From an uncultured delta proteobacterium (GTDB taxonomy: Bacteria; Desulfobacterota; Desulfobacteria; Desulfobacterales; B30-G6): DNA of 64,000 bases. The notes under the pieces are model-generated. The model ran no database searches. It saw only the letters and a list, made by a program, of their open reading frames with translations, and had not been told where the DNA came from. The position numbers and the translations under genes are program-made. The DNA is taken from NCBI GenBank assembly GCA_963823335.1, contig CAWGLD010000006.1, positions 128,314-192,313 on the forward strand, written 5' to 3'. Positions 2,990 through 56,977 of the stretch are shown one piece after another. Each line of letters begins with the position of its first letter. Positions within the stretch are counted from its first letter, which is position 1.

Positions 2990-3006
2990 TTTTACCGATG
3001 GAGAAA

Positions 3007-3148
3007 GAATGAACATCCAACGTCCAACGTCCAACATCGAATTTTGAACCGCAACAGCGAGCGCATTCCCCGTAGCTTGTTGCGAGGTTCCTCAATGTTT
3101 CTTTTAATTCGACGTTGGGTGTTTAATGTTTGTTGTTCGACGTTCATC
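3007..3148. repeat. W2 hairpin element with a T13-derived hairpin in its loop
   Basis: The left arm is GAATGAACATCCAACGTCCAACGTCCAACATCGAA. The right arm is TTCGACGTTGGGTGTTTAATGTTTGTTGTTCGACGTTCATC. The loop carries GAACCGCAACAGCGAGCGCATTCCCCGTAGCTTGTTGCGAGGTTCCTCAAT. Confidence 0.75.
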
Positions 3149-3209
3149 TTTTAAAAAATATGACATTATAACAATTCTACCTTATGAATGGTAATAGGCC
3201 CCATTAAAC

Positions 3210-19854: not shown

Positions 19855-19879
19855 ATTTCTGTATACCGGGAGCAACACA

Positions 19880-20494
19880 ATGAACTCAATAAACACAAAG
19901 AACCCAAAAAACGCCGCAGCTGAATCTCCCGCCCTTCTCATTATCGACATGGTTAAAGACAACTTCAAGAAAGAAAGAAACCTTCCCATCACACCTCTGG
20001 CGATAAAAACCATCGATCCTTTGAATCAGATCATCCGTTTTTTCCGTTCCCATGCATGGCCGGTTGTTTTTTCAACAGACGCATTCAATAAAAACGACTT
20101 TATCTTTACCGGTAGAATGCTGCCCCATTCGCTGGCCGGAACCGAAGGTGCAGAAGTGGTTGACGCGCTGGATTTTCAGGATACAGATACCTGGCTCCCC
20201 AAACCGCGGTTTTCAGCATTTTTCAAAACCGGACTCGAGAAGATGTTACATGATCGGGGAATTACACTTTGCGCGGTCGCTGGTATCGCCACACCCTTTT
20301 GTGTACTGACAACTGCCATGGATGCCCTGTGCCATGACTTCAAGGCCGTCATTCTAGAAAACTGCTCTACGGCATTTTCAGATGACTTGCACCAGCAAAC
20401 GCTGAGCCTCTATCGGCGCAATCCCCTTTATCCCCTCTTTCGTATCATGACATCCTCTGAACTGATGAATGAACTCAGCCCTGGCATTTCATAG
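19880..20494 (+). CDS. isochorismatase-family cysteine hydrolase
   Basis: 204 aa. ALLIIDMVKDNF and the catalytic Cys context GIATPFCVLTTAMDA are present. Confidence 0.8.
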   Translation: MNSINTKNPKNAAAESPALLIIDMVKDNFKKERNLPITPLAIKTIDPLNQIIRFFRSHAWPVVFSTDAFNKNDFIFTGRMLPHSLAGTEGAEVVDALDFQDTDTWLPKPRFSAFFKTGLEKMLHDRGITLCAVAGIATPFCVLTTAMDALCHDFKAVILENCSTAFSDDLHQQTLSLYRRNPLYPLFRIMTSSELMNELSPGIS

Positions 20495-20723
20495 ATACCC
20501 GGATCTGTTTTTATCCTGTAAGGGGTTTGACTACCGAATAACATCTCCTTTGATATAGAATTATACCGTTTGTCCTAATATTATTCCGAAAATAGGATGG
20601 CGGCATACGGGGTTGTAGCAGAAAAAGGCCCTCAATCGGAACGTTTATCTGACAACCCCTTATACGCTCTTGATGTTACTTGCGGCAAAGCCGCCTAAGA
20701 TAAAAACGCGCAGCGATTTTATC

Positions 20724-20752
20724 TTGACTTAACCGTTTTGTAGCTGTAATGT
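20724..20752 (+). promoter_or_regulatory. candidate sigma70-type promoter upstream of the ior cluster
   Basis: TTGACT (20724-20729), 17-nt spacer, TAATGT (20747-20752). It lies directly after a W8-type hairpin. Confidence 0.45.
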
Positions 20753-20756
20753 AGCT
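20742..20756. promoter_or_regulatory. AGCT-N7-AGCT candidate operator overlapping the -10
   Basis: AGCTgtaatgtAGCT. The same AT-spacer design occurs at 15775-15789, 15584-15598 and 38445-38470. Confidence 0.35.
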
Positions 20757-20839
20757 TCAATTAAATGTATAATCGAAGAGCACCCAGGATCAGATACAAG
20801 GGCCTCTTCCCGGCAAGAAATCGATCTGATTGATTCTTT

Positions 20840-21118
20840 TGCATTCCCCTTAGGTTCTGCCTTGCGGCAATACTTCGCATGCTGCGGGGTTAGCGAGCGA
20901 GTCAACTACCACCCGTGAAACGGGTGGCTTGGATTTCCCCCAAAATGGGGGAAAAACAAAGGAGACGGCACGTCTCCGCAAGTTCAGGTTCGGAGCCGCG
21001 TGCCAAGCACGCGGTTTGTAGAACAATCAAAATTAGACAGAATTCCTTACGGTCGCTGCGAAGCACTTCCGGACGGCAGAACATTCCTCGTAGCTTGCTG
21101 CGAGGTTCTTCAATCGTT
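20840..21118 (+). repeat. T13 twin-hairpin element interrupted by Q125 insertion
   Basis: 20840-20900 (..CATGCTGCGGGGTTAGCGAGCGA) and 21029-21118 (AAAATTAGACAGAATTCCTTACGGTCG..ATTCCTCGTAGCTTGCTGCGAGGTTCTTCAAT) are contiguous in the uninterrupted copy at 27615-27733 (reverse complement). Confidence 0.7.
20901..21028 (+). mobile_element. Q125 four-hairpin element, copy A
   Basis: 128 nt with four consecutive stems: CCACCCG/CGGGTGG, TTCCCCC/GGGGGAA, GGAGACG/CGTCTCC and CCGCGTG/CACGCGG. It matches the reverse complement of 23250-23375 except for 2 substitutions and 2 one-base indels. Confidence 0.7.
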
Positions 21119-21173
21119 ATCCAAATATGTTCGTAAAACACTTTTATTCCCCATAAATCTTAAGGAAACGACC

Positions 21174-23023
21174 ATGCACAAATTACTCACTGATGAGCCG
21201 GGCAAGAAAATGCTTCTTCTCGGAAATGAGGCCATCGCCAGAGGTGCCATCGAAGCAGGTGTCGCCTTTGCCACAACCTATCCAGGAACGCCGTCTTCTG
21301 AAATATCCCTTGCTCTTTTCCAGATGTCTCAGCAGTGCGACCTCTACTTCGAGTACAGCACAAATGAAAAAGTGGCCCTTGAAGTTGCTGCTGGAGCTGC
21401 CAATTCAGGTGTCAAAACCATGTGCATGATGAAACATGTGGGCTTGAATGTTGCAGCAGATCCACTCATGACCCTTGCTTACGTGGGTGTCAAAAGTGGT
21501 CTCGTCATCTTGACTGCAGATGACCCCTTTATGTTTTCGAGCCAGAATGAGCAGGACAACCGCTATTACGGAAAACTTTCGGGTTTGTCGATCATTGAGC
21601 CGTCTTCGGTGGAAGAAGCCAAGGAAATGATCCCTTATGCCTTTGATCTTTCACTAAAACTAAAGGAACCTGTCCTCTTCCGCACCACCACCCGCATTAA
21701 TCACTCCACAGGAATTGTCACCCTTGGTCCCATAGAGGAACGTATTACCAAGGGTACTTTTACAAAAGACCCGTTCAACTTGGTAACAGTGCCTGCTGTT
21801 TCACGAAAACTTCATGTCAAACTCCTGGATAACATTCAGAAAGCCCAGGAAATATCTGAGACATCAGAATACAATTTTTCTTCTGGTAATGGCCCTTGGG
21901 GTGTTGTCTGTAACGGAGTTAGTTACAATTACGTATGCGATGCCATCAAGGATCTGGGGATCGAAGATAAAACCAAACTCCTGCGAATCGGTTTTTCCCA
22001 TCCCTTGCCGGAAAAACGTATCCAGGAATTTATTTCCAGCTGTGAAAAAATACTCGTGGTCGAAGAAGGCGAACCCTTTATGGAAGAGGCCATCAGGTCA
22101 TTTGCACAGGAAATCCAGAGCACCATTCCCATCCAGGGAAAAGGTGAAGGGCTTTTCAGCCAACTTTATGAATTTGACCCCGCCCTGGTCAGGAGGGTTA
22201 TGGGCAAGTTCTTTGGGGTTCCCGTTTCAACGGCTGTGATTCCTGATCTGACCGATGTGCCGGAAATTCCCCAACGGCCGCCCAATCTGTGTGCGGGATG
22301 CTCCCACCGTGCCACTTTTTATGCTGTGGGAAAGGCGCTTGAAGGCCAAGAAACCATTTATCCAACCGATATCGGTTGTTACACACTCGGCTTTCTCCCC
22401 CCCTGTCCAAGGGTGATTTTCTCATTTGCATGGGTTCCTCAGTAAGCACATCCTGCGGGTTCTCAAAAACAACCGATAAAAAAGTCATTTCCTTTATCGG
22501 AGATTCTACATTCTTTCACTCCGGAATAACGGGGCTTGTCAATGCTGTCTTCAACAACCATAACTTCACTTTGATCATTCTCGACAACGGTACTACGGCC
22601 ATGACCGGGCATCAGCCCAACCCAGGTGTGGACATGGGCAATTTTAATCTGACCGATTTTGGCCGTATATCCATTGAAGAACTTGTCAAAGGAATCGGTG
22701 TAAAACATATCTCGAAAATCAAACCCTTCAGATTAAAAAAGAGCATACAGGCGATTAAAGACGCTGTAGCCTACGAGGGTGTCTCAGTAATCATAGCAGA
22801 AGAAATCTGTACCTTATACGCCAAGGGTTTGAAACAGTTAAAGGCCCGCCCCTTCCATGTAACCGACAAATGCAAGGACCATAAGGATTGTATCAGCAGT
22901 TTGGGATGCCCTGCATTTTTTATTGACGAGGGCCGTGTCAAAATTGATCCCGAGATATGTGTGGGATGTGCTGTCTGTGCTCAGATATGCCCTGAAAATG
23001 CAATATTGCCCATGAAATCATAG
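21174..23023 (+). pseudogene. iorA: indolepyruvate:ferredoxin oxidoreductase alpha subunit, interrupted by a frameshift in a C7 run (22397-22403)
   Basis: ORF 21174-22445 ends ...TDIGCYTLGFLPPCPRVIFSFAWVPQ*. The frame shifted by -1 continues LSPPLSKGDFLICMGSSVSTSCGF ... GDSTFFHSG ... CVGCAVCAQICP to 23023. Joined at the C run they give a contiguous ~616-aa IorA with TPP and 2x[4Fe-4S] regions. The start was moved to the ATG at 21174 (MHKLLTDEPGKKMLLLGNEA). Confidence 0.8.
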
Positions 23024-23193
23024 GGACGATTTCATGGAATGCGACCTTGTCGCTCCAACACAAAAGGCTATTAATCACGTATAGTTAGGACGATATGAAA
23101 TATGGATCATCTCCCAAAGAGTTGACCCAAATTAAGGATTCAAGGATTCCAGGGATCCAGGGTTCGAGTGAGATGACGTGAGGCGCCAGCTAA

Positions 23194-23489
23194 ATGCTTA
23201 AGAATTATAAAGAGTTAAAGGTTTGGAAACGCAGACGATGATATCCGGTGATTGTTCTACAAACCGCGTGCTTGGCACGCGGTTCCGAACCTGAACTTAC
23301 GGAGACGTGCCGTCTCCTTTGTTTTCCCCATTTTGGGGGAAATCCAAGCCACCCGTTTCACGGGTGGTAGTTGACTTGGATTATATGAACAAGGAAATGC
23401 TTGAGGAATTAAGAGAGGATCTTGGGGATGTAGAGAGAATGCTAAAAGCGATGATCAACTCCCTGGAAAACAAACACTTGAATCCTTGA
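23194..23489 (+). pseudogene. remnant of a four-helix-bundle (23S rRNA IVS-type) protein gene, middle replaced by Q125 insertion
   Basis: 23194-23241 reads MLKNYKELKVWKRRR*, which is family-typical (YKxLxVW). 23376-23489 reads LDYMNKEMLEELREDLGDVERMLKAMINSLENKHLNP*, which parallels the C-terminus of the intact copy at 55542 (YIDNETFNKLYSQAETVSRLTSGFIKYL). The Q125 element lies between the two pieces. Confidence 0.55.
23250..23375 (-). mobile_element. Q125 four-hairpin element, copy B (inverted relative to copy A)
   Basis: It is the reverse complement of copy A. It lies inside the four-helix-bundle pseudogene, splitting the N- and C-terminal remnants. Confidence 0.7.
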
Positions 23490-23611
23490 ATCCTGGACTC
23501 CTTGAACCCTTTCTCCCAACTGATTGGGAGAAGATCCTGAAATATTAACAAATTTTCTTTTTCGCGCTGCGCAAGCAGCGTGGAAAAAGAAAATTAAAGA
23601 TTGGACACATC

Positions 23612-24217
23612 ATGGAAACAAAAAGACTGATAATTGTAGCGGTGGGTGGCCAGGGAAACCTTCTGGCTTCGAAAGTTCTCGGCGAGGCGGCATTGATTTC
23701 CGACATACCAGTTAAAATGAGTGAAATTCATGGTATGGCTCAGAGGGGCGGCGTTGTTGAGTCCGCTATTGTTTTCGGAGATGCTAAAAGTACCATCATA
23801 TCTGACGGAGAGGCAGATATTCTGGTTGGGTTTGAACCTTCTGAAACCTTGCGTGCCCTGAACAAATGCAGCAAGGAGACAGTGGTTATTACCAACACAT
23901 CACCCCTGCCGCCATTTACCGTTGGCATTGGCATCGGAACATACCCTGACATGGATGAGCTCCAGCGCCTGATCAAGGAGAAAACGAGTCAATTGATTGC
24001 CTTTGATGCGTCTTCTCTGGCAAATCAGGCCGGCAACCCCATGTCTTTAAACATCGTTCTGCTGGGTGCGCTGATTCAGACAGGAATCCTGCCGTTGTCC
24101 GCCGAAAATATAAAGCATGCCATACGTACCACCACAAAACAGGCTTTTGTAGAGACCAATATCAAAGCCTTTGAGCTGGGTTTTTCTGCAGCAGAAAATG
24201 CTATGGAAAAGGAATGA
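23612..24217 (+). CDS. iorB: indolepyruvate:ferredoxin oxidoreductase beta subunit
   Basis: 201 aa. IIVAVGGQGNLLASKVLGEAA and HGMAQRGG motifs are present. It lies downstream of iorA. Confidence 0.85.
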   Translation: METKRLIIVAVGGQGNLLASKVLGEAALISDIPVKMSEIHGMAQRGGVVESAIVFGDAKSTIISDGEADILVGFEPSETLRALNKCSKETVVITNTSPLPPFTVGIGIGTYPDMDELQRLIKEKTSQLIAFDASSLANQAGNPMSLNIVLLGALIQTGILPLSAENIKHAIRTTTKQAFVETNIKAFELGFSAAENAMEKE

Positions 24218-24335
24218 ACATCGAACATTCAACATCGAATTTTGAATGAACAGATGAAGAAACAGATGTGTGACCTGGGGTTGAACTTTTTTCATTCATC
24301 ATTGGACGTTCGATGTTCGATGTTGGACGTTCATC
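24212..24335. repeat. W2 hairpin element between iorB and paaK
   Basis: The left arm is GAATGAACATCGAACATTCAACATCGAATTTTGAATGAAC and includes the iorB TGA stop at 24215-24217. The right arm is TTCATTCATCATTGGACGTTCGATGTTCGATGTTGGACGTTCATC. Confidence 0.8.
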
Positions 24336-24363
24336 TTTTAAAAAATCATCAAGGAGGTATCAA

Positions 24364-27523: not shown

Positions 27524-27567
27524 ACGCCTACAGCTGTAAGCACCTAACAGCCTACAGTCTAATCCCC
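27476..27567 (+). repeat. W1 G arm + conserved core, overlapping the 3' end of the activase gene
   Basis: GAAGGGTTTGAGGGTTCGAGGGGTGGAGGTTTGGAGGGGGG followed by TAGCTGAACGCCTACAGCTGTAAGCACCTAACAGCCTACAGTCTAATCCCC. The gene's TGA (27521-27523) lies in the core. Confidence 0.8.
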
Positions 27568-27614
27568 TGAAAAACGAATGCTATTGGTAAAGAAATAAAA
27601 AATCAAAACTCATA

Positions 27615-27733
27615 ATTGAAGAACCTCGCAGCAAGCTACGAGGAATCTTCGACCGTAAGGAATTCTTTCTAATTTAGATGCGCTCGCTAACCCCGCAGCA
27701 AGCTACGGGGAATGCGCTCGCTGTTGCGGTTCA
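27615..27733 (-). repeat. T13 twin-hairpin element, full-length copy
   Basis: The reverse complement reads GAACCGCAACAGCGAGCGCATTCCCCGTAGCTTGCTGCGGGGTTAGCGAGCGCATCTAAATTAGAAAGAATTCCTTACGGTCGAAGATTCCTCGTAGCTTGCTGCGAGGTTCTTCAAT. Confidence 0.75.
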
Positions 27734-31463: not shown

Positions 31464-33029
31464 ATGACCGCCTGGATGAATTTGGGTCAGCAGTTAAAAA
31501 TAAATGCATCCAAGTACCCCGACACCATCGCACTGGCAGATAAAGACCGTAAATTTACCTATCCCGAGACCAACCAGCGGGTAAACAGAGTGTGCCATAG
31601 CCTACTGTCGTTGGGTTTGCGTAAGGGCGACAAGATAGCGGTGTTCATGGAAAACAGCATCGAGATCGTGGAAATTTTTCTGGCGACAGCCAAAACAGGC
31701 CTTGTGATCGTGCCCATCAATTTCCGTCTCGTGGGAAAAGAGGTCACCTACATCGTCAACAATTCAGATGCAAAAGCGTTCATTATTGATGCTGAGTTCA
31801 CACCCATGCTGGATGGTATCAAAGCGGACCTGGAGAATATCCCATCTGAAAATTACATCGTAGTCGGGAAAGCTGTTGATGGGTATCAAGCCTACGAGCT
31901 TTTCATGGGAAAAAGTCAGAGTCATGAACCTGAATGTCCTGTGGCGCCCGAAGATACCTGGATTTTGATCTACACCTCCGGCACAACCGGCAAACCGAAA
32001 GGGGTGGTTCGTTCCCACGAGTCTCATATTGCCTTTTTCCTTATCAATGCCATCGATTTCGGATTTAACGATCATGATGTCTGCCTGAATGTCATGCCCT
32101 TGTGTCATATCAACTCAACCTTTTTTACATTTACCTTCACCTATATCGGAGCAAGCGTATATATTCATCCGGCCCGTTCATTCAAACCCGAACAAATTCT
32201 CGATATTATTCAGAAGGAAAAAATCACGTTTATATCATTGATCCCAACCCACTATAACCTGATTCTGAACATTTCGGAAAAAGCCAAAAAATACAATGTC
32301 ACGTCTATCCGGAAACTACTCTGTTCTTCTGCACCGGTTCACAAAAAAATGAAACTTGCCATTATGGCGTTTTTCACGGACGTAGAACTTTTTGAAGCTT
32401 ATGGCTCCACAGAAGCCGGCATTGTCACGGTTCTGAAACCTGAAAATCAACTTCGAAAATTGGGTTCCATTGGACAAGAATCCCTTGGCACTGATTTTAT
32501 CAAAATTCTTGATGAAAACGGAAAAGAAGTCGCTCCCGGAGAGGTGGGCGAATTGTACTCCCGGGGTCCCATGTTGTTCGATGAATATTACAAACTGCCC
32601 GACAAAACAAAAGAGGCTTTTCAAGGGGAATGGTTCAGTGCCGGCGACATGGCCCGTAAAGATGCAGACGGTTTTTATCAGATCGTCGACAGAAAGGACA
32701 ACATGATCATCACCGGGGGGGAAAATGTCTACCCCAGTGAAATCGAAGAAGTTGTCGGCAGCAACGATTGCGTATTCGACTGCGCGGTTATCGGCATCCC
32801 CGACGACAAATGGGGCGAGAAAGTTGTCGCAGTGGTCATTCCCAAGGGCAGTGAGGAGATTCAAATCACCGAGAAAATGATCATGGATTGCTGCAAGGAT
32901 CAGATGGCAGGTTACAAACGACCAAAGGAAATCCTGTTTATCAAAGAGGATGAAATGCCCCGTACACCCACGGGGAAGATTCTGCACAGGAAATTGCGGG
33001 AGCATTTTAGAAATAGGGTTCCAGAATAA
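31464..33029 (+). CDS. AMP-forming acyl/aryl-CoA ligase
   Basis: 521 aa. YTSGTTGKPKGVVRSH and GDMARKDADGFYQIVDRKDNMII are present. Confidence 0.85.
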   Translation: MTAWMNLGQQLKINASKYPDTIALADKDRKFTYPETNQRVNRVCHSLLSLGLRKGDKIAVFMENSIEIVEIFLATAKTGLVIVPINFRLVGKEVTYIVNNSDAKAFIIDAEFTPMLDGIKADLENIPSENYIVVGKAVDGYQAYELFMGKSQSHEPECPVAPEDTWILIYTSGTTGKPKGVVRSHESHIAFFLINAIDFGFNDHDVCLNVMPLCHINSTFFTFTFTYIGASVYIHPARSFKPEQILDIIQKEKITFISLIPTHYNLILNISEKAKKYNVTSIRKLLCSSAPVHKKMKLAIMAFFTDVELFEAYGSTEAGIVTVLKPENQLRKLGSIGQESLGTDFIKILDENGKEVAPGEVGELYSRGPMLFDEYYKLPDKTKEAFQGEWFSAGDMARKDADGFYQIVDRKDNMIITGGENVYPSEIEEVVGSNDCVFDCAVIGIPDDKWGEKVVAVVIPKGSEEIQITEKMIMDCCKDQMAGYKRPKEILFIKEDEMPRTPTGKILHRKLREHFRNRVPE

Positions 33030-33038
33030 TTTCATAAA

Positions 33039-33268
33039 GATGAACGTCCAACATCGAACGCTGAACATCGAACATCGAATGAAAACAAATATTAAAGAGC
33101 ACACTGTAACAAGACTTGTCGACGAGGAGTTTGGCTGAGGCTCACTCGAAGACCTATAGTCAAGTCGCTACGGGAAATGTGCTCAGTATTGCCGTTCAAT
33201 ACTGACGTCTGTTTCTTCATATTTCAAATTCAACATTCGATGTTGGACGTTCGATGTTCGAAGTTCAT
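33039..33268. repeat. W2 hairpin element with degenerate T13 in loop
   Basis: The left arm is GATGAACGTCCAACATCGAACGCTGAACATCGAACATCGAATG. The right arm is TTCAACATTCGATGTTGGACGTTCGATGTTCGAAGTTCAT. The loop contains GCTACGGGAAATGTGCTCAGTATTGCCGTTCAA. Confidence 0.75.
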
Positions 33269-33408
33269 TTGTTTTTGGACACCAGGTTATTGTGTCGACA
33301 CCATAGGGTGGGATGCGAACCTTATTCGCAAATTCGTACTTTCGTAATAAAAGATTTTTATTGTGACGTAACAAGTTAAAACTAGTATTTACCGAAAGGA
33401 GACCGACA

Positions 33409-40026: not shown

Positions 40027-40239
40027 GGGTTCGAGGGTTGGAGGGTGGCTTAAAGCTTTTGGCGATAAGCAGTGAATAAACTGTGGCCTAAACCCTAAAA
40101 TGTATAAACCGGAAAAGATAAAAATCTTTTATCACGAAAGTACGAAAACACGAAAAAGACCATAGAGGGGTTCGAAAGTGGATTTCTACTATCAGCGAAA
40201 AACCCACTCGAACCCTCGACCCCTTGAATCCTTGAACCC
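40025..40239. repeat. W1 hairpin element (215 bp) inside the Mo-enzyme operon, containing a W3 half-element
   Basis: The G arm GAGGGTTCGAGGGTTGGAGGGTGG starts inside the TGA at 40024-40026. The C arm is CCACTCGAACCCTCGACCCCTTGAATCCTTGAACCC (40203-40239). The interior holds ATCACGAAAGTACGAAAACACGAAAAAGACCAT. Confidence 0.8.
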
Positions 40240-40296
40240 TTTTGATTATTAAACATAGTTAGTGAATCTAAGATAAACTGAATTAGAGGTCCCCAT

Positions 40297-43816: not shown

Positions 43817-43910
43817 GAAACACCAAATACAAAACACCAAACACTAGACCCAACGAACGCAACAAACCCAACAAACTCAATGAACGCAACAAACCCAATA
43901 AACATAACTG
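43817..43910. repeat. solo C/A arms: W5 followed by W7
   Basis: GAAACACCAAATACAAAACACCAAACACTA followed by GACCCAACGAACGCAACAAACCCAACAAACTCAATGAACGCAACAAACCCAATAAAC. It contains the ATG used by the GNAT gene at 43880. Confidence 0.7.
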
Positions 43911-44377
43911 GCTATACCCCCGGCGCCATCGGTCGTATAACCGAACTTCATGGCAGGTATTACAATCAATCGTGGGGGTTTGGACCGTTCTTCGAGGCCA
44001 AAGTGGCCACCGAGTTATCCGAATTCATCGGCCGATTCGATGACCAGAAGGATGGCTTCTGGACGGCCTGCCTCGACAACCGCGTTCAGGGTTCAATTGT
44101 CATTGATGCTAAAAACGCCGATTCAGAAGGAGTCCATTTACGATGGTATATCGTTTCAGAAAGTCTTCACGGTCAAGGCATCGGTGGTCTTCTTCTATCA
44201 GTGGCCATGCACTTTTGCCGTGAGCGGCACTATAAACAGGTGTTTCTCTGGACATTCAAGGGTCTCGATCCTGCCAGACATCTGTATGATAAAAATGGGT
44301 TCAAGTTGGTACATGAGCAACAAGGATCTCAGTGGGGCACAACCGTCAAAGAACAGAAATATATCTGTGAGCTCTGA
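43880..44377 (+). CDS. GNAT family N-acetyltransferase
   Basis: 165 aa. LHGQGIGGLLLSVAMHF is present. The start codon and first codons (MNATNPIN) lie in a W7 C/A arm. Confidence 0.7.
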   Translation: MNATNPINITGYTPGAIGRITELHGRYYNQSWGFGPFFEAKVATELSEFIGRFDDQKDGFWTACLDNRVQGSIVIDAKNADSEGVHLRWYIVSESLHGQGIGGLLLSVAMHFCRERHYKQVFLWTFKGLDPARHLYDKNGFKLVHEQQGSQWGTTVKEQKYICEL

Positions 44378-49052: not shown

Positions 49053-49266
49053 CAATTTTGAATTATGAATTTTGATTATGAATTAGATAGCTGATGACTG
49101 ATAGCTCATAGGTTATAGGCAAGCGCTAGCATGCTGGATGCATTGTCAAAAACTCATCGTCGATCAAGTCGATCGATGATTGTCAGTGTGTGTCTGTGGC
49201 TAAATAAAAAAGATTTACACCTTTAGCGAAACACCAAACACTAAACACAAAATACCAAACACAAAT
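49053..49266. repeat. composite of W10 (reverse), W6, W4 right end and W5 C/A arm
   Basis: CAATTTTGAATTATGAATTTTGATTATGAATT; AGATAGCTGATGACTGATAGCTCATAGG; TCATCGTCGATC-AAGTC-GATCGATGATTGTCAGTGTGTGTCTGTGGCTAAATAAAAAAGAT; GAAACACCAAACACTAAACACAAAATACCAAACAC. Confidence 0.7.
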
Positions 49267-49272
49267 TACACA

Positions 49273-50061
49273 ATGAACCCAACAAACACACCGCTACTGC
49301 GCATCGCCAACATCGAAACACTCTATTTCGACAGGATCTATGCGCTGCATGGGCTTTCTCTCGAGATTCAGGAGGGCGAAATATTTGCGGTGCTGGGCCC
49401 GAATGGTGCCGGCAAAACCACCCTTCTTAAAACCATTGCCGGCCTCCTGAAAGACCAGCCCAAAAAAGGTGTCATCGAATTCATGGGCAAACGCATTCAC
49501 CGCCACCCGCCTGAACGTGTGGCCAATCTCGGCATCGTATATGTTCCCGAAGATCGCGGACTTTTCAGGGAATTGACCGTACGGGAAAACTTGGATATCG
49601 GATGCTGGGGCAGAAAAGGAAAGGAAGTTCAGGAAGACTTGGAGTTTGTCTACACGCTGTTTCCCATATTAAAGGAGAGAGGCAAGCAGCAGGCAGAAAC
49701 CCTGTCAGGTGGTCAACAGCAGATGCTGGCAGTTGCAAGGGCCATGCTCCGCCGACCCAAGCTTCTCATGCTGGACGAGCCATCCCTGGGACTGGCTCCG
49801 CTGGTAGCAAAAGATGTTTATGGAGCACTCGTCAAGATCAGCGAAACCGGGACGACCATTCTCCTTGTAGAACAGAATGCAAAACTGGCGCTTGGAATTG
49901 CCGACTATGGTTATATCATGGAATCCGGACGCATTGTCCTCGAGGGCACTTCCCAGGATCTCAAGGAAAATGAAGATGTTCAGGAACTCTATTTGGGCAT
50001 TGGCCAGGAAGATGCCGCATCTAAAGGATTCAGATTGTACAAGAAAAGGAGAACCTGGTAA
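49273..50061 (+). CDS. livF: ABC transporter ATP-binding protein (LivF-like)
   Basis: 262 aa. GPNGAGKTT, LSGGQQQML and LLMLDEPS are present. The start codon lies in repeat-derived sequence. Confidence 0.85.
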   Translation: MNPTNTPLLRIANIETLYFDRIYALHGLSLEIQEGEIFAVLGPNGAGKTTLLKTIAGLLKDQPKKGVIEFMGKRIHRHPPERVANLGIVYVPEDRGLFRELTVRENLDIGCWGRKGKEVQEDLEFVYTLFPILKERGKQQAETLSGGQQQMLAVARAMLRRPKLLMLDEPSLGLAPLVAKDVYGALVKISETGTTILLVEQNAKLALGIADYGYIMESGRIVLEGTSQDLKENEDVQELYLGIGQEDAASKGFRLYKKRRTW

Positions 50062-52976: not shown

Positions 52977-53102
52977 GATGAGTTTATTGGGTTCGTTGAG
53001 TTCGTTGGGTTGGTTGACAGTTATCGGGCTCCCTAATTTCCTGTCCGCCTGTTTACAGTTAACAACTCAATGAACACAATAAACACAACAAGCTCAAGAA
53101 AC
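52977..53102. repeat. W7 hairpin element without ORF, between livM and livH
   Basis: The G/T arm is GATGAGTTTATTGGGTTCGTTGAGTTCGTTGGGTTGGTTGAC. The loop is 39 nt. The C/A arm is GTTAACAACTCAATGAACACAATAAACACAACAAGCTCAAGAAAC. Confidence 0.8.
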
Positions 53103-53115
53103 AAAGAAGGTTAAT

Positions 53116-55473: not shown

Positions 55474-56011
55474 GGGTTATTGAGTTTGTTGGGTTTATTG
55501 AGTTCGTTGGGTTCGTTGCGTTTATTATTTGGGTGCAGTAAATGCCGATTAGAAGGTTTGAAGATATTGATGCATGGAAAGAGGCCAGAAAACTTGTTAT
55601 TTTGGTCTATCAGGCGATTGATTCCAATGATTTTTTCAGAAAAGATTACAGACTTGTCAATCAAATTCAAGGTGCGGCAGTTTCTGCAATGTCAAATATT
55701 GCAGAGGGTTTTTCAAGAAGAAGCAACAAAGAATTCATCCAGTTTCTTTTTATTTCGAAAAGTTCAGCTGCAGAGGTTCAAAGTCAACTATACGTCGCCC
55801 TCGACCAGAAATATATCGACAATGAAACATTTAATAAACTTTATTCACAAGCCGAAACAGTTTCAAGACTTACTTCCGGCTTCATCAAATACCTAAGATC
55901 TCAACTCAACAAACCAAGGCAACCAGGTTAACTCAATGGCACTCCCATATGCCCCAGAGCATTCAACAACTCGACGAACTCAATAAACCCAACGAACCCA
56001 ACGAACACGAC
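55474..56011 (+). mobile_element. IVS-like element: W7 inverted-repeat arms enclosing an intact four-helix-bundle gene
   Basis: The left G/T arm is 55474-55533. The right C/A arm is 55964-56011 (CAACAACTCGACGAACTCAATAAACCCAACGAACCCAACGAACACGAC). The ORF 55542-55931 lies in the loop. Confidence 0.7.
55542..55931 (+). CDS. four-helix-bundle protein (23S rRNA intervening-sequence protein / S23p family, Avd-related)
   Basis: 129 aa. FEDIDAWKEARKLVILVY, QIQGAAVSAMSNIAEGFSRRSNKEFIQFL and ISKSSAAEVQSQL are the family hallmarks as I recall them. The gene lies in the loop of a W7 inverted repeat. Confidence 0.8.
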   Translation: MPIRRFEDIDAWKEARKLVILVYQAIDSNDFFRKDYRLVNQIQGAAVSAMSNIAEGFSRRSNKEFIQFLFISKSSAAEVQSQLYVALDQKYIDNETFNKLYSQAETVSRLTSGFIKYLRSQLNKPRQPG

Positions 56012-56085
56012 AATCCTCTCTTGAAAATCATTCAAAACAGTTTATAGTTAGAATATCATTATCCAATTTAATTTGGGGGTATCGT

Positions 56086-56572: not shown

Positions 56573-56629
56573 GTTCATTAATCAGATCGCTTTTTCGTAA
56601 AGCGCTAAATTGTTTTGACGTTGAGAAAC

Positions 56630-56947
56630 GAGTGAACATCGAACGTCCAACATCGAACATCGAATTTTGAACCGCAACAGCGTGCGCATTCCCGTAGGTT
56701 CTGCCGCACGGCAGAACATTCCTCGTAGCTTGCTGCGAGGTTCTTCAATTTAAAAAGAAGAAGAAACAGGCAAATCGTTGAAGGGCTTCCAAATATCAGA
56801 GCAAGTAAACATGTTGTGGCCAATTGTTAAGATTGAAAGCGTTGCCATACCCAAGGCATCAAACAAATTGAAAAGAAACAGATATAATTCGATATTGATA
56901 TTTGTTTTCATTCGATGTTGGACGTTGGACGTTCGATGTTCGACGTT
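56630..56947. repeat. W2 hairpin element (318 bp) with T13 variant in loop
   Basis: The left arm is GAGTGAACATCGAACGTCCAACATCGAACATCGAATTTTG. T13 lies at 56668-56749. The right arm is TTCATTCGATGTTGGACGTTGGACGTTCGATGTTCGACGTT. Confidence 0.75.
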
Positions 56948-56977
56948 ATTCTTTTAAATAGTAACTCGGTAAATAAA

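Follow-up and report, generated by a model that had tools for sequence, protein, structure and literature searches.

Background

IS608 of Helicobacter pylori, a member of the IS200/IS605 family of insertion sequences (IS), inserts 3′ of the tetranucleotide TTAC, neither adds nor removes DNA on excision, and is recognised via subterminal hairpins (PMC3201880). Its cut sites are chosen by pairing with the tetranucleotide located 5′ of each hairpin foot (PMC3201880); the left guide (GL) AAAG is used with the left cleavage site (CL) TTAC and the right guide (GR) GAAT with the right cleavage site (CR) TCAA, including the pairs C-3:G-35 and T-4:A-34 (PMC3201880, PMC3597680). In the IS200/IS605 family the left linker is normally the longer one, while the right linker comprises about 8 nt (PMC3597680), and both IS608 and ISDra2 of Deinococcus radiodurans prefer the lagging-strand template (PMC6006769). 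Moreover, Meers et al. described that the transposon-adjacent motif (TAM) and the transposon-encoded motif (TEM) of IS605-type elements differ only slightly, and gene-less copies resembling palindrome-associated transposable elements (PATEs) were reported (PMC10055086). In the present study, a pair of inverted repeats of about 125 nt, here termed Q125 (the Q family), was analysed, which bracket the gene iorA in a 64-kb window from an uncultured member of the Desulfobacterales (positions 128,314 to 192,313 of contig CAWGLD010000006.1, assembly GCA_963823335.1; "the window" denotes this whole stretch of DNA). It is strongly supported that Q125 is a small, highly structured mobile element, and it probably behaves as a non-autonomous, gene-less derivative (a PATE or a miniature inverted-repeat transposable element, MITE) of the IS200/IS605-type single-strand "peel-and-paste" kind. 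The Q family would accordingly be an IS200/IS605-like element of a known kind, newly found in a poorly studied clade. To our knowledge, almost nothing is known about the mobile DNA of uncultured relatives of sulfate reducers, in which Q represents a sharply bounded and apparently recently active mobile family of the single-strand type.

Q125 resembles PATEs, for example the PATE-like ISGst copies of Geobacillus stearothermophilus (PMC10055086), in being short, gene-less and present in many copies, in carrying subterminal hairpins at both ends without inverted repeats or target duplication, and in being inserted 3′ of a motif of 4-5 nt of which a near-copy is found at the right end. It differs from them in having no identified cognate IS or TnpA, in two extra internal covarying hairpins, in end hairpins that are perfect and mutually dissimilar, in an outer stem that encloses the left hairpin, and in its hosts, which are uncultured Desulfobacterales. 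With the classical MITEs (Correia, ERIC, RUP, Nezha) it shares the small size, the lack of coding sequence, the secondary structure, the dispersed occurrence and the polymorphism between strains. However, classical MITEs are bounded by terminal inverted repeats and by target duplications that DDE transposases produce, neither of which is seen in Q125, and a DDE-type classical MITE was therefore ruled out.

The inverted pair and its boundaries

The two copies, the gene between them and the repeat that hosts copy A are located as follows.

20900..21024, minus strand: Q125 copy A, 125 nt, top strand (window minus strand) 5′-GTTCTACAAACC...GGTAGTTGACT-3′; absent to the base from the sibling contig L001; best match to the covariance model (169 bits)
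23254..23376, plus strand (top strand = window plus strand): Q125 copy B, 123 nt as assembled; common to the window and L001
21174..23023, plus strand: iorA, bracketed by both copies and not part of the element
20843..21114, no strand assigned: T13-like composite intergenic repeat, host of copy A; its paralogues align across the insertion point

Copies A and B are about 97% identical, with two substitutions and a two-column gap in the pairwise alignment, and the repeat search of the window recovered them as inverted arms at 20949-21029/23249-23329 (81 nt, 96% identity) and 20900-20954/23322-23376 (55 nt, 98% identity). An earlier sequence-only reading of this DNA had described a near-identical inverted pair with four hairpins, which was borne out by repeat search, alignment and folding; the existence of the element stood, while its limits had to be corrected from 20901-21028 and 23250-23375 to 20900-21024 and 23254-23376. 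Both bases gapped in copy B fall in homopolymer runs of hairpin 2, and copy B of L001 has full-length runs, so that the two missing bases may be assembly errors. When fragments of Q125 were searched in the window, only these two places were found, with none expected by chance, and the covariance-model scan of the window likewise returned these two copies only.

Copy A at a site that is empty in a sibling contig

L001, a 364-kb metagenome contig from the European Nucleotide Archive (ENA), was reached via a look-up of IorB and is collinear with window positions 13.3-34.3 kb at 98.0-99.4% identity. It contains copy B and lacks copy A, the length difference being exactly 125 nt. In the orientation of the element the filled site of the window reads ...TTTTGATT|GTTCTACAAACC...GGTAGTTGACT|CGCTCGC..., and the empty site of L001 reads ...TTTTGATT|CGCTCGC..., in which TGATT is kept. 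There is no target duplication at the site of copy A, and the junction is ambiguous by one base (T) only. From the exact absence of 125 nt in L001 it follows that copy A was inserted, or precisely excised, after the divergence of the two strains, while copy B must be older than this split because it is common to both. Copies A and B are independent insertions, and their pairing around iorA is incidental.

The empty site, together with the dispersed family described below, confirmed the proposal that both copies are insertions of a small structured mobile element. The failure of the sequence-only reading to recognise terminal inverted repeats or target duplications was likewise justified, since neither the empty site nor the flanks of the family show any; the ends GTTCTAC... 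and ...GTAGTTGACT show no inverted correspondence, and palindromes are confined to the internal hairpins. The interruption of a T13 element by copy A was verified by alignment of the paralogues that span the insertion point (window 27615-27703 and locus L034 5488-5610) and by the empty orthologous site in L001. The paralogue at 27615-27703 reads CATCT on the plus strand at the position where the site of copy A has AATCA, the complement of TGATT. Further pairs of filled and empty sites were sought among all loci, and the window/L001 pair was the only one found. In locus L004 (4419-4709), a copy of Q seems to be broken by a T13-like module, a nesting opposite in sense to that of copy A.

Distribution of the Q family

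A scan of species-representative genomes with a pattern for the right end gave 55 matches at 53 loci in 14 metagenome-assembled genomes (MAGs) of the Desulfobacterales, among them Olavius symbiont Delta 1; 17 of the 53 loci are situated in a single fragmented MAG. With a looser pattern, in which all hairpins were left free, nine further loci were detected in JGI metagenomes. A covariance model was built from 15 window-type copies and the five-stem structure, and 51 full-length copies were recovered by it and aligned to it. The genome-wide count that had been suggested for the pair thus yielded many more copies than the two in the window. For flank statistics 49 complete copies were available, most of them 125 or 126 nt long, together with five variants of 150 nt. 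The latter (loci L008, L025, L027, L040 and L048) belong to the second of the subfamilies listed below and carry about 24 extra bases in place of the 3′ arm of hairpin 2. Copies of Q are intergenic, and their orientation relative to the immediately adjacent genes is unbiased.

No match to Q125 was obtained by blastn against plasmid and phage collections or in a scan of viral contigs, and a full-text literature search for the end sequence of Q retrieved unrelated primer matches only. The covariance model and the target motif may be used as an aid for annotating repeat-rich intergenic DNA and for separating strains. A second inverted pair of Q copies was observed in locus L030 (98-232 and 2324-2462), about 2.1 kb apart, their right ends pointing towards each other; the genes enclosed are a higA-like antitoxin gene and one with a Fic domain, not a transposase gene.

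Conserved stems of Q125

Four hairpins (H1 to H4) and an outer stem (P0) were assigned in copy A.

20909..20927, minus strand: H1, right-end hairpin, CCACCCG/CGGGTGG, 19 nt; compensated variant CCGCACG/CGTGCGG in locus L064
20934..20954, minus strand: H2, TTTCCCCC/GGGGGAAA in copy A; double changes between subfamilies in 6 of 8 pairs
20961..20977, minus strand: H3, GGAGACG/CGTCTCC in copy A; double changes in 7 of 7 pairs
20996..21014, minus strand: H4, left-end hairpin, CCGCGTGC/GCACGCGG, 19 nt in copy A; double changes in 5 of 10 pairs
20988..21024, minus strand: P0, outer stem enclosing H4; GTTC (21021-21024, the first four nucleotides of the element) pairs with GAAC (20988-20991)

At least three subfamilies were distinguished, whose stems differ by compensatory changes, whose loops differ as well, and each of which is dominant in different genomes.

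Window type: start GTTC, H4 CCGCGTGC/GCACGCGG, P0 partner GAAC, H3 GGAGACG/CGTCTCC, H2 TTCCCCC/GGGGGAA
Second subfamily: start GGTTGT, H4 CCGGGGGC/GCCCCCGG, P0 partner ACAACC, H3 GAAACAC/GTGTTTC, H2 TTCCGGCC/GGCCGGAA
Third subfamily: start CTTGC, H4 CCGGGTGC/GCACCCGG, P0 partner GCAAG, H3 AAAGCAC/GTGCTTT, H2 TTTTCGGCC/GGCCGAAAA

P0 is the fifth covarying stem; in it, the first 4-6 nt of Q125 pair with the bases just 3′ of H4, and the pairing is maintained across the three subfamilies (GTTC/GAAC, GGTTGT/ACAACC and CTTGC/GCAAG). In the alignment of the 51 copies 96.4% of the cells are paired, compared with 33-47% when the partners were slid by 1-3 columns, a control given alongside because the model-guided alignment was fitted to the given structure and hence leans towards it. 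Both sides are changed in 23 of the 40 pairs, the compensatory changes tracing back to a few subfamily splits, and the observed values were reached by none of 500 shuffles. The model-guided alignment was used instead of MAFFT and RNAalifold on mixed subfamilies, which missed H3 due to register shifts. H1 was fixed by the first search pattern, and its variant CCGCACG/CGTGCGG in L064 stems from the metagenome set in which H1 was unconstrained. The covariation analysis that had been proposed for the element was therefore positive: the five stems of Q125 are kept by compensatory change, and the hairpins are under selection. Stem-breaking changes without compensation are present in single copies, as expected if selection acts on active source copies only.

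For the RNA of copy A a minimum free energy (MFE) of -67.8 kcal/mol (z -7.5) was calculated for the strand in window orientation (plus) and of -59.9 kcal/mol (z -5.9) for the reverse complement. As single-stranded DNA (ssDNA) copy A has an MFE of -38.2 kcal/mol (z -7.2), and all four hairpins also form with DNA energy parameters. Among the non-canonical pairs, 17 are G:T on the top strand versus 30 A:C, which are G:T on the bottom strand, so that no signal for a functional strand is given. On the top strand H3 of copy A is followed by TTTGTTTTTC; this arrangement is terminator-like and was picked up by the terminator scan.

The very stable fold and the covariation in all stems would also suit an element that is primarily a structured RNA, namely a multicopy small RNA or a guide-RNA scaffold, and the right ends of IS605-type elements are known to encode guide RNAs (PMC10055086). 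This explanation is given a low probability. In the search of the whole window against Rfam 15 no family reached its gathering score, and up to an E value of 10 only chance-level matches (E 3.6-9) were listed. The promoter scan was negative, H3 is even terminator-like on the top strand, the orientation to neighbouring genes shows no preference, the loops vary between subfamilies, and the stem-breaking changes in single copies are not compensated. Moreover, sharp boundaries and a target motif are properties of DNA insertions. The suggestion of the sequence-only reading that the element might encode an RNA accordingly found no positive evidence, as neither an Rfam match nor an orientation bias nor a promoter was detected.

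Target motif, end motif and candidate guides

The motifs at the borders of the copies and the candidate guides are listed here.

21025..21029, minus strand: target motif (TAM-like) TGATT directly 5′ of copy A; AATCA on the plus strand; kept in L001
23249..23253, plus strand: target motif TGATT directly 5′ of copy B
20900..20904, minus strand: end motif (TEM-like) TGACT at the 3′ end of copy A; one base off the target motif
21015..21018, minus strand: candidate left guide CAAA (top strand), just 5′ of the foot of H4; C48 A51 A49 A49 of 51 copies
20928..20931, minus strand: candidate right guide CAAG (top strand), just 5′ of the foot of H1; C51 A49 A49 G49 of 51 copies

TGATT precedes 39 of the 49 complete copies, and the others are preceded by sequences one base off, except for one with TTTTT; by position, -5 to -1 upstream of Q read T47 G42 A47 T49 T49 of 49. 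Beyond the target motif the flanks are random, apart from T at -6 (28/49) and C or T at +1 (39/49). The target (T)TGAT of Q resembles that of ISDra2, which is TTGAT. All 51 aligned copies end with TTGACT, although this motif, like H1, was in part set by the search patterns; four copies outside the exact search pattern also end with GACT. The absence of inverted repeats and duplication, the exact empty site, the motif on the 5′ side, its near-copy at the right end and the subterminal hairpins together represent the signature of single-strand transposition of the IS200/IS605 type.

The most conserved unpaired bases of Q are exactly the four located 5′ of each end hairpin. By analogy with the pairs known for IS608, we infer a guide pattern in which the first guide base would pair with site position -3, the second with -4 and the fourth with -1. 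For Q, this pattern predicts TGnT from CAAA, and TGAT is observed; from CAAG it predicts TGnC, and TGAC is observed. It thus accounts for the T/C difference between target and end motif through the one base in which CAAA and CAAG differ. The fit holds only if cleavage takes place after TGAT and TGAC. With cleavage after TGATT and TGACT, the fit of the guide rule was inconsistent across subfamilies. The guide-to-site logic and the A at site position -2 are shared with IS608. The linkers of Q, 8-9 nt on the right and 10-13 nt on the left, agree with IS608 and ISDra2 in a right linker of about 8-9 nt and a longer left one, the left linker of IS608 being longer still (19 nt). In contrast to Q, IS608 and ISDra2 are 1.3-1.8 kb in size, encode tnpA and tnpB and have imperfect hairpins.

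According to the mechanism proposed on this basis, a Y1 HUH transposase encoded elsewhere would bind H4 on the left and H1 on the right of the top strand, between TGATT and TGACT. Pairing of CAAA with TGAT in the target and of CAAG with TGAC at the element end would set the cleavage points, and the top strand would leave as a circle. Single-stranded DNA at a replication fork would offer this circle a further TGAT(T), 3′ of which it would re-insert, and excision would reseal the donor exactly.

Strand bias of the insertions

When the flanks were read in the orientation of the element, the GC skew was positive in 33 of 40 loci (p 4e-5), i.e. the top strand lies on the G-rich strand. Separation of the genes by orientation gave a skew on the element's strand of +0.050 for genes in the same orientation and of -0.022 for those in the opposite orientation, which shows that much of the skew is a coding-strand effect; a replication-like residual of about +0.014 is left. 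Of the coding bases, 60.5% are in the orientation of Q, and in 29 of 40 loci Q agrees with most of the coding sequence. Insertion into the lagging-strand template, as preferred by IS608 and ISDra2, would give such a bias, which is indirect evidence.

The lack of inverted repeats and duplication and the site-specific insertion would equally be in line with another duplication-free system, such as an IS110/IS1111-type recombinase with a short shared core or a rolling-circle HUH enzyme of the IS91 type, for which TGAYT at both junctions could serve as the recombination core. We consider such a system improbable. A shared core does not explain the consistent T versus C in the left and right motifs, which follows from the guide rule; the subterminal hairpins covary, and the strand bias points to a single-strand mechanism. 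Furthermore, no gene of these classes was found in the partial annotation, whereas the tblastn searches described below were directed at TnpA, TnpB and RAYT only and never at these classes.

Search for a mobilising gene

Membership of Q125 in the IS200/IS605 family is unproven because no transposase partner was found, and several points weigh against this assignment. By tblastn with IS200 TnpA, the Escherichia coli REP-associated tyrosine transposase (RAYT) and a TnpB consensus as queries, no Y1 transposase, TnpB or RAYT was detected in the window and about 0.49 Mb of loci. In the JGI metagenomes the left end of the window-type subfamily gave no matches without the element body, i.e. with sequence other than H3 following it. 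The invariance of H1 and of the end motif is partly due to ascertainment, since both were fixed by the search patterns. The empty site is a single one and may reflect precise loss as well as gain. Cleavage may fall at either of two adjacent positions (TGAT|T or TGATT|), and the guide rule fits the TGAT|T reading only, so that a T would then be required at +1 of every target. The strand bias was tested with local skew in 8-kb pieces, and some of the loci share a contig and are not independent. Finally, the left and right hairpins of Q are perfect palindromes of mutually different sequence, while those of IS608 are imperfect and similar to each other.

The only weak tblastn match (L032, E 0.05) turned out to be a CbiQ-type transporter. 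Pfam annotation of about half the window revealed catabolic and transport genes only and no transposase. As the metagenome scan never showed the left end without the element body, there is no visible sign that Q125 forms the terminus of a longer known IS.

High copy number, the lack of a known parent and solo H1 units make the repetitive extragenic palindromic (REP) sequences and bacterial interspersed mosaic elements (BIMEs) the main rival of the IS200/IS605-type reading. On this account Q would consist of host-resident repeats spread by one domesticated Y1 enzyme (RAYT/TnpA-REP) instead of an IS-borne transposase, which appears unlikely. Solo H1 hairpins with a TAGTTGACT tail and without the rest of the element were observed in L010 (3499-3540), L007 (4670-4699) and L009 (7917-7946); the L010 unit is fully palindromic (AGTCAACTGCCACCCG...CGGGTGGTAGTTGACT) and resembles a "double-foot" REP. 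The units in L007 and L010 thus favour the REP-like explanation, as do the dominance of a separate subfamily in each genome and the high copy number while an autonomous parent was not found. Moreover, RAYTs likewise belong to the HUH Y1 enzymes, and the hairpins on which they act carry a 5′ guide tetranucleotide (PMC6006769). Q and the REP/BIME plus RAYT systems have in common abundant intergenic hairpins, solo units and probably a Y1 HUH enzyme acting in trans. However, REPs are units of 21-65 nt with GTAG or GTGG located 0-2 nt 5′ of the hairpin and occur mostly as pairs of REP and inverted REP (PMC3333891, PMC6006769), a pairing that Q lacks; its 125-nt unit contains four hairpins that differ from one another and share one orientation. 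In Q the feet are preceded on the 5′ side by CAAA and CAAG instead of GTAG or GTGG, a GTAG being present 3′ of H1, where it overlaps the 3′ side of the hairpin. Q also has a strict target motif with a matching end motif, and the tblastn search with the RAYT query was negative for the window and the 0.49 Mb of loci.

A further possibility, regarded as quite unlikely, is that Q is an orphan family without autonomous parent, which is moved in trans by a single-copy Y1 enzyme with target, end and guide logic in the style of IS605, and whose three right-hand hairpins plus TGACT (about 78 nt) might in addition be a compact guide-RNA scaffold for TnpB or IscB, cutting TGATT-flanked empty sites and thereby retaining the element. 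If this were true, Q would be intermediate between the PATEs of the IS200/IS605 family and the REP/RAYT systems. More generally, a true lack of a transposase partner, or a guide RNA encoded by the right end, would make Q relevant to the relations between IS200/IS605 elements, REPs and RNA-guided nucleases.

The iorA locus and the surroundings of copy B

The distances of the Q125 copies from iorA, 146 nt upstream and 227 nt downstream, had been given correctly by the sequence-only reading. It had further suggested that recombination between the copies could invert the 2.2-kb iorA segment, and two inverted arms of about 125 nt with 97% identity would allow for such a switch. That the pair is a functional switch can nevertheless be considered highly improbable: L001 has one copy with the same gene order and the same orientation of the segment, the pair consists of two independent insertions of a dispersed element, and no invertase or recombinase was found in the partial annotation. 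Inversion would, moreover, uncouple iorA from iorB and from the upstream signals. The two strains, of which only one carries copy A at 146 nt upstream of iorA, provide a natural test for the effect of an insertion on an operon for aromatic amino-acid catabolism.

A candidate promoter that had been assigned to 20724 was not supported, as the promoter scan found no sigma-70-like site in 20500-23700. Upstream of iorA, TGTATAAT at 20764-20773 is extended -10-like and seems to be a better promoter candidate than TTGACT at 20724; the simple promoter scan reports neither of them. iorA itself is present as two overlapping open reading frames (ORFs; the first to 22445, the second 22376-23023), and a C-run at about 22395-22401 contains six C and seems to be one base short, so that the two-ORF reading is attributed to a frameshift in the C-run near 22395. 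The same split occurs in L001 (423 + 197 aa); its cause is either a genuine frameshift or a homopolymer error common to both assemblies.

Copy B lies in the 588-nt operon spacer. On the plus strand, on which iorA and iorB are transcribed, its H3 is followed by TTTGTTTTCC (23301-23327), and this terminator-like structure might lower the expression of iorB. Around copy B the following feature was assigned.

23194..23489, plus strand: remnant of a four-helix-bundle gene (23S rRNA intervening-sequence protein, IVP, type); the middle of the gene is missing

Upstream of copy B about 12 codons resemble the N-terminus of the gene, and downstream about 37 C-terminal codons are left, which gave a weak match to TIGR02436 (E 0.005, covering profile positions 76-109 of 109). 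The intact paralogue at 55542-55931, whose counterpart in L065 is annotated as PF05635, has about 75 central codons that are missing here. The earlier claim that copy B splits a four-helix-bundle gene is thus correct insofar as the ends of the gene flank copy B; due to the large internal loss, the site is a remnant and not a simple split, and its history must comprise more than a simple insertion.

Other intergenic repeats near the pair

At 20557-20676, at a distance of 220 nt from copy A, the window contains a 120-nt block that L001 lacks and that shows no duplication. Its left flank ends with TTGATAT and the block itself with TTGATGT, and copies of the core (TTATACCG...CCCCTATA) with different boundaries are found in L053 (two), L013 and L037. 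The block could be another small mobile element, or the difference could have resulted from a deletion between short imperfect repeats. Window positions 27560-27702 (the intergenic stretch with the uninterrupted T13 copy) correspond to 13946-14023 in L001, where the sequence is unrelated and of different length. Intergenic repeats appear to turn over quickly in this lineage.

Two further types of intergenic repeats were observed. Short arrays with a period of 9 nt, for example of the CAACAAAC and TTGAATCC types, are recurrent, and two of them follow directly after the four-helix-bundle gene at 55542-55931 and the remnant around copy B. Units resembling GTTCGATGTT occur in inverted arrangement and often adjoin T13-like hairpin modules (CCCCGTAGCTTGCTGCGGGG).

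19864-19921, 23455-23512, 40185-40242, 43837-43912, 49248-49305, 53054-53111, 55967-56015: arrays with a period of 9 nt
3003-3159, 24208-24346, 33026-33280, 56610-56962: GTTCGATGTT-like repeats

Modular repeats of these kinds are unusually dense in the window.

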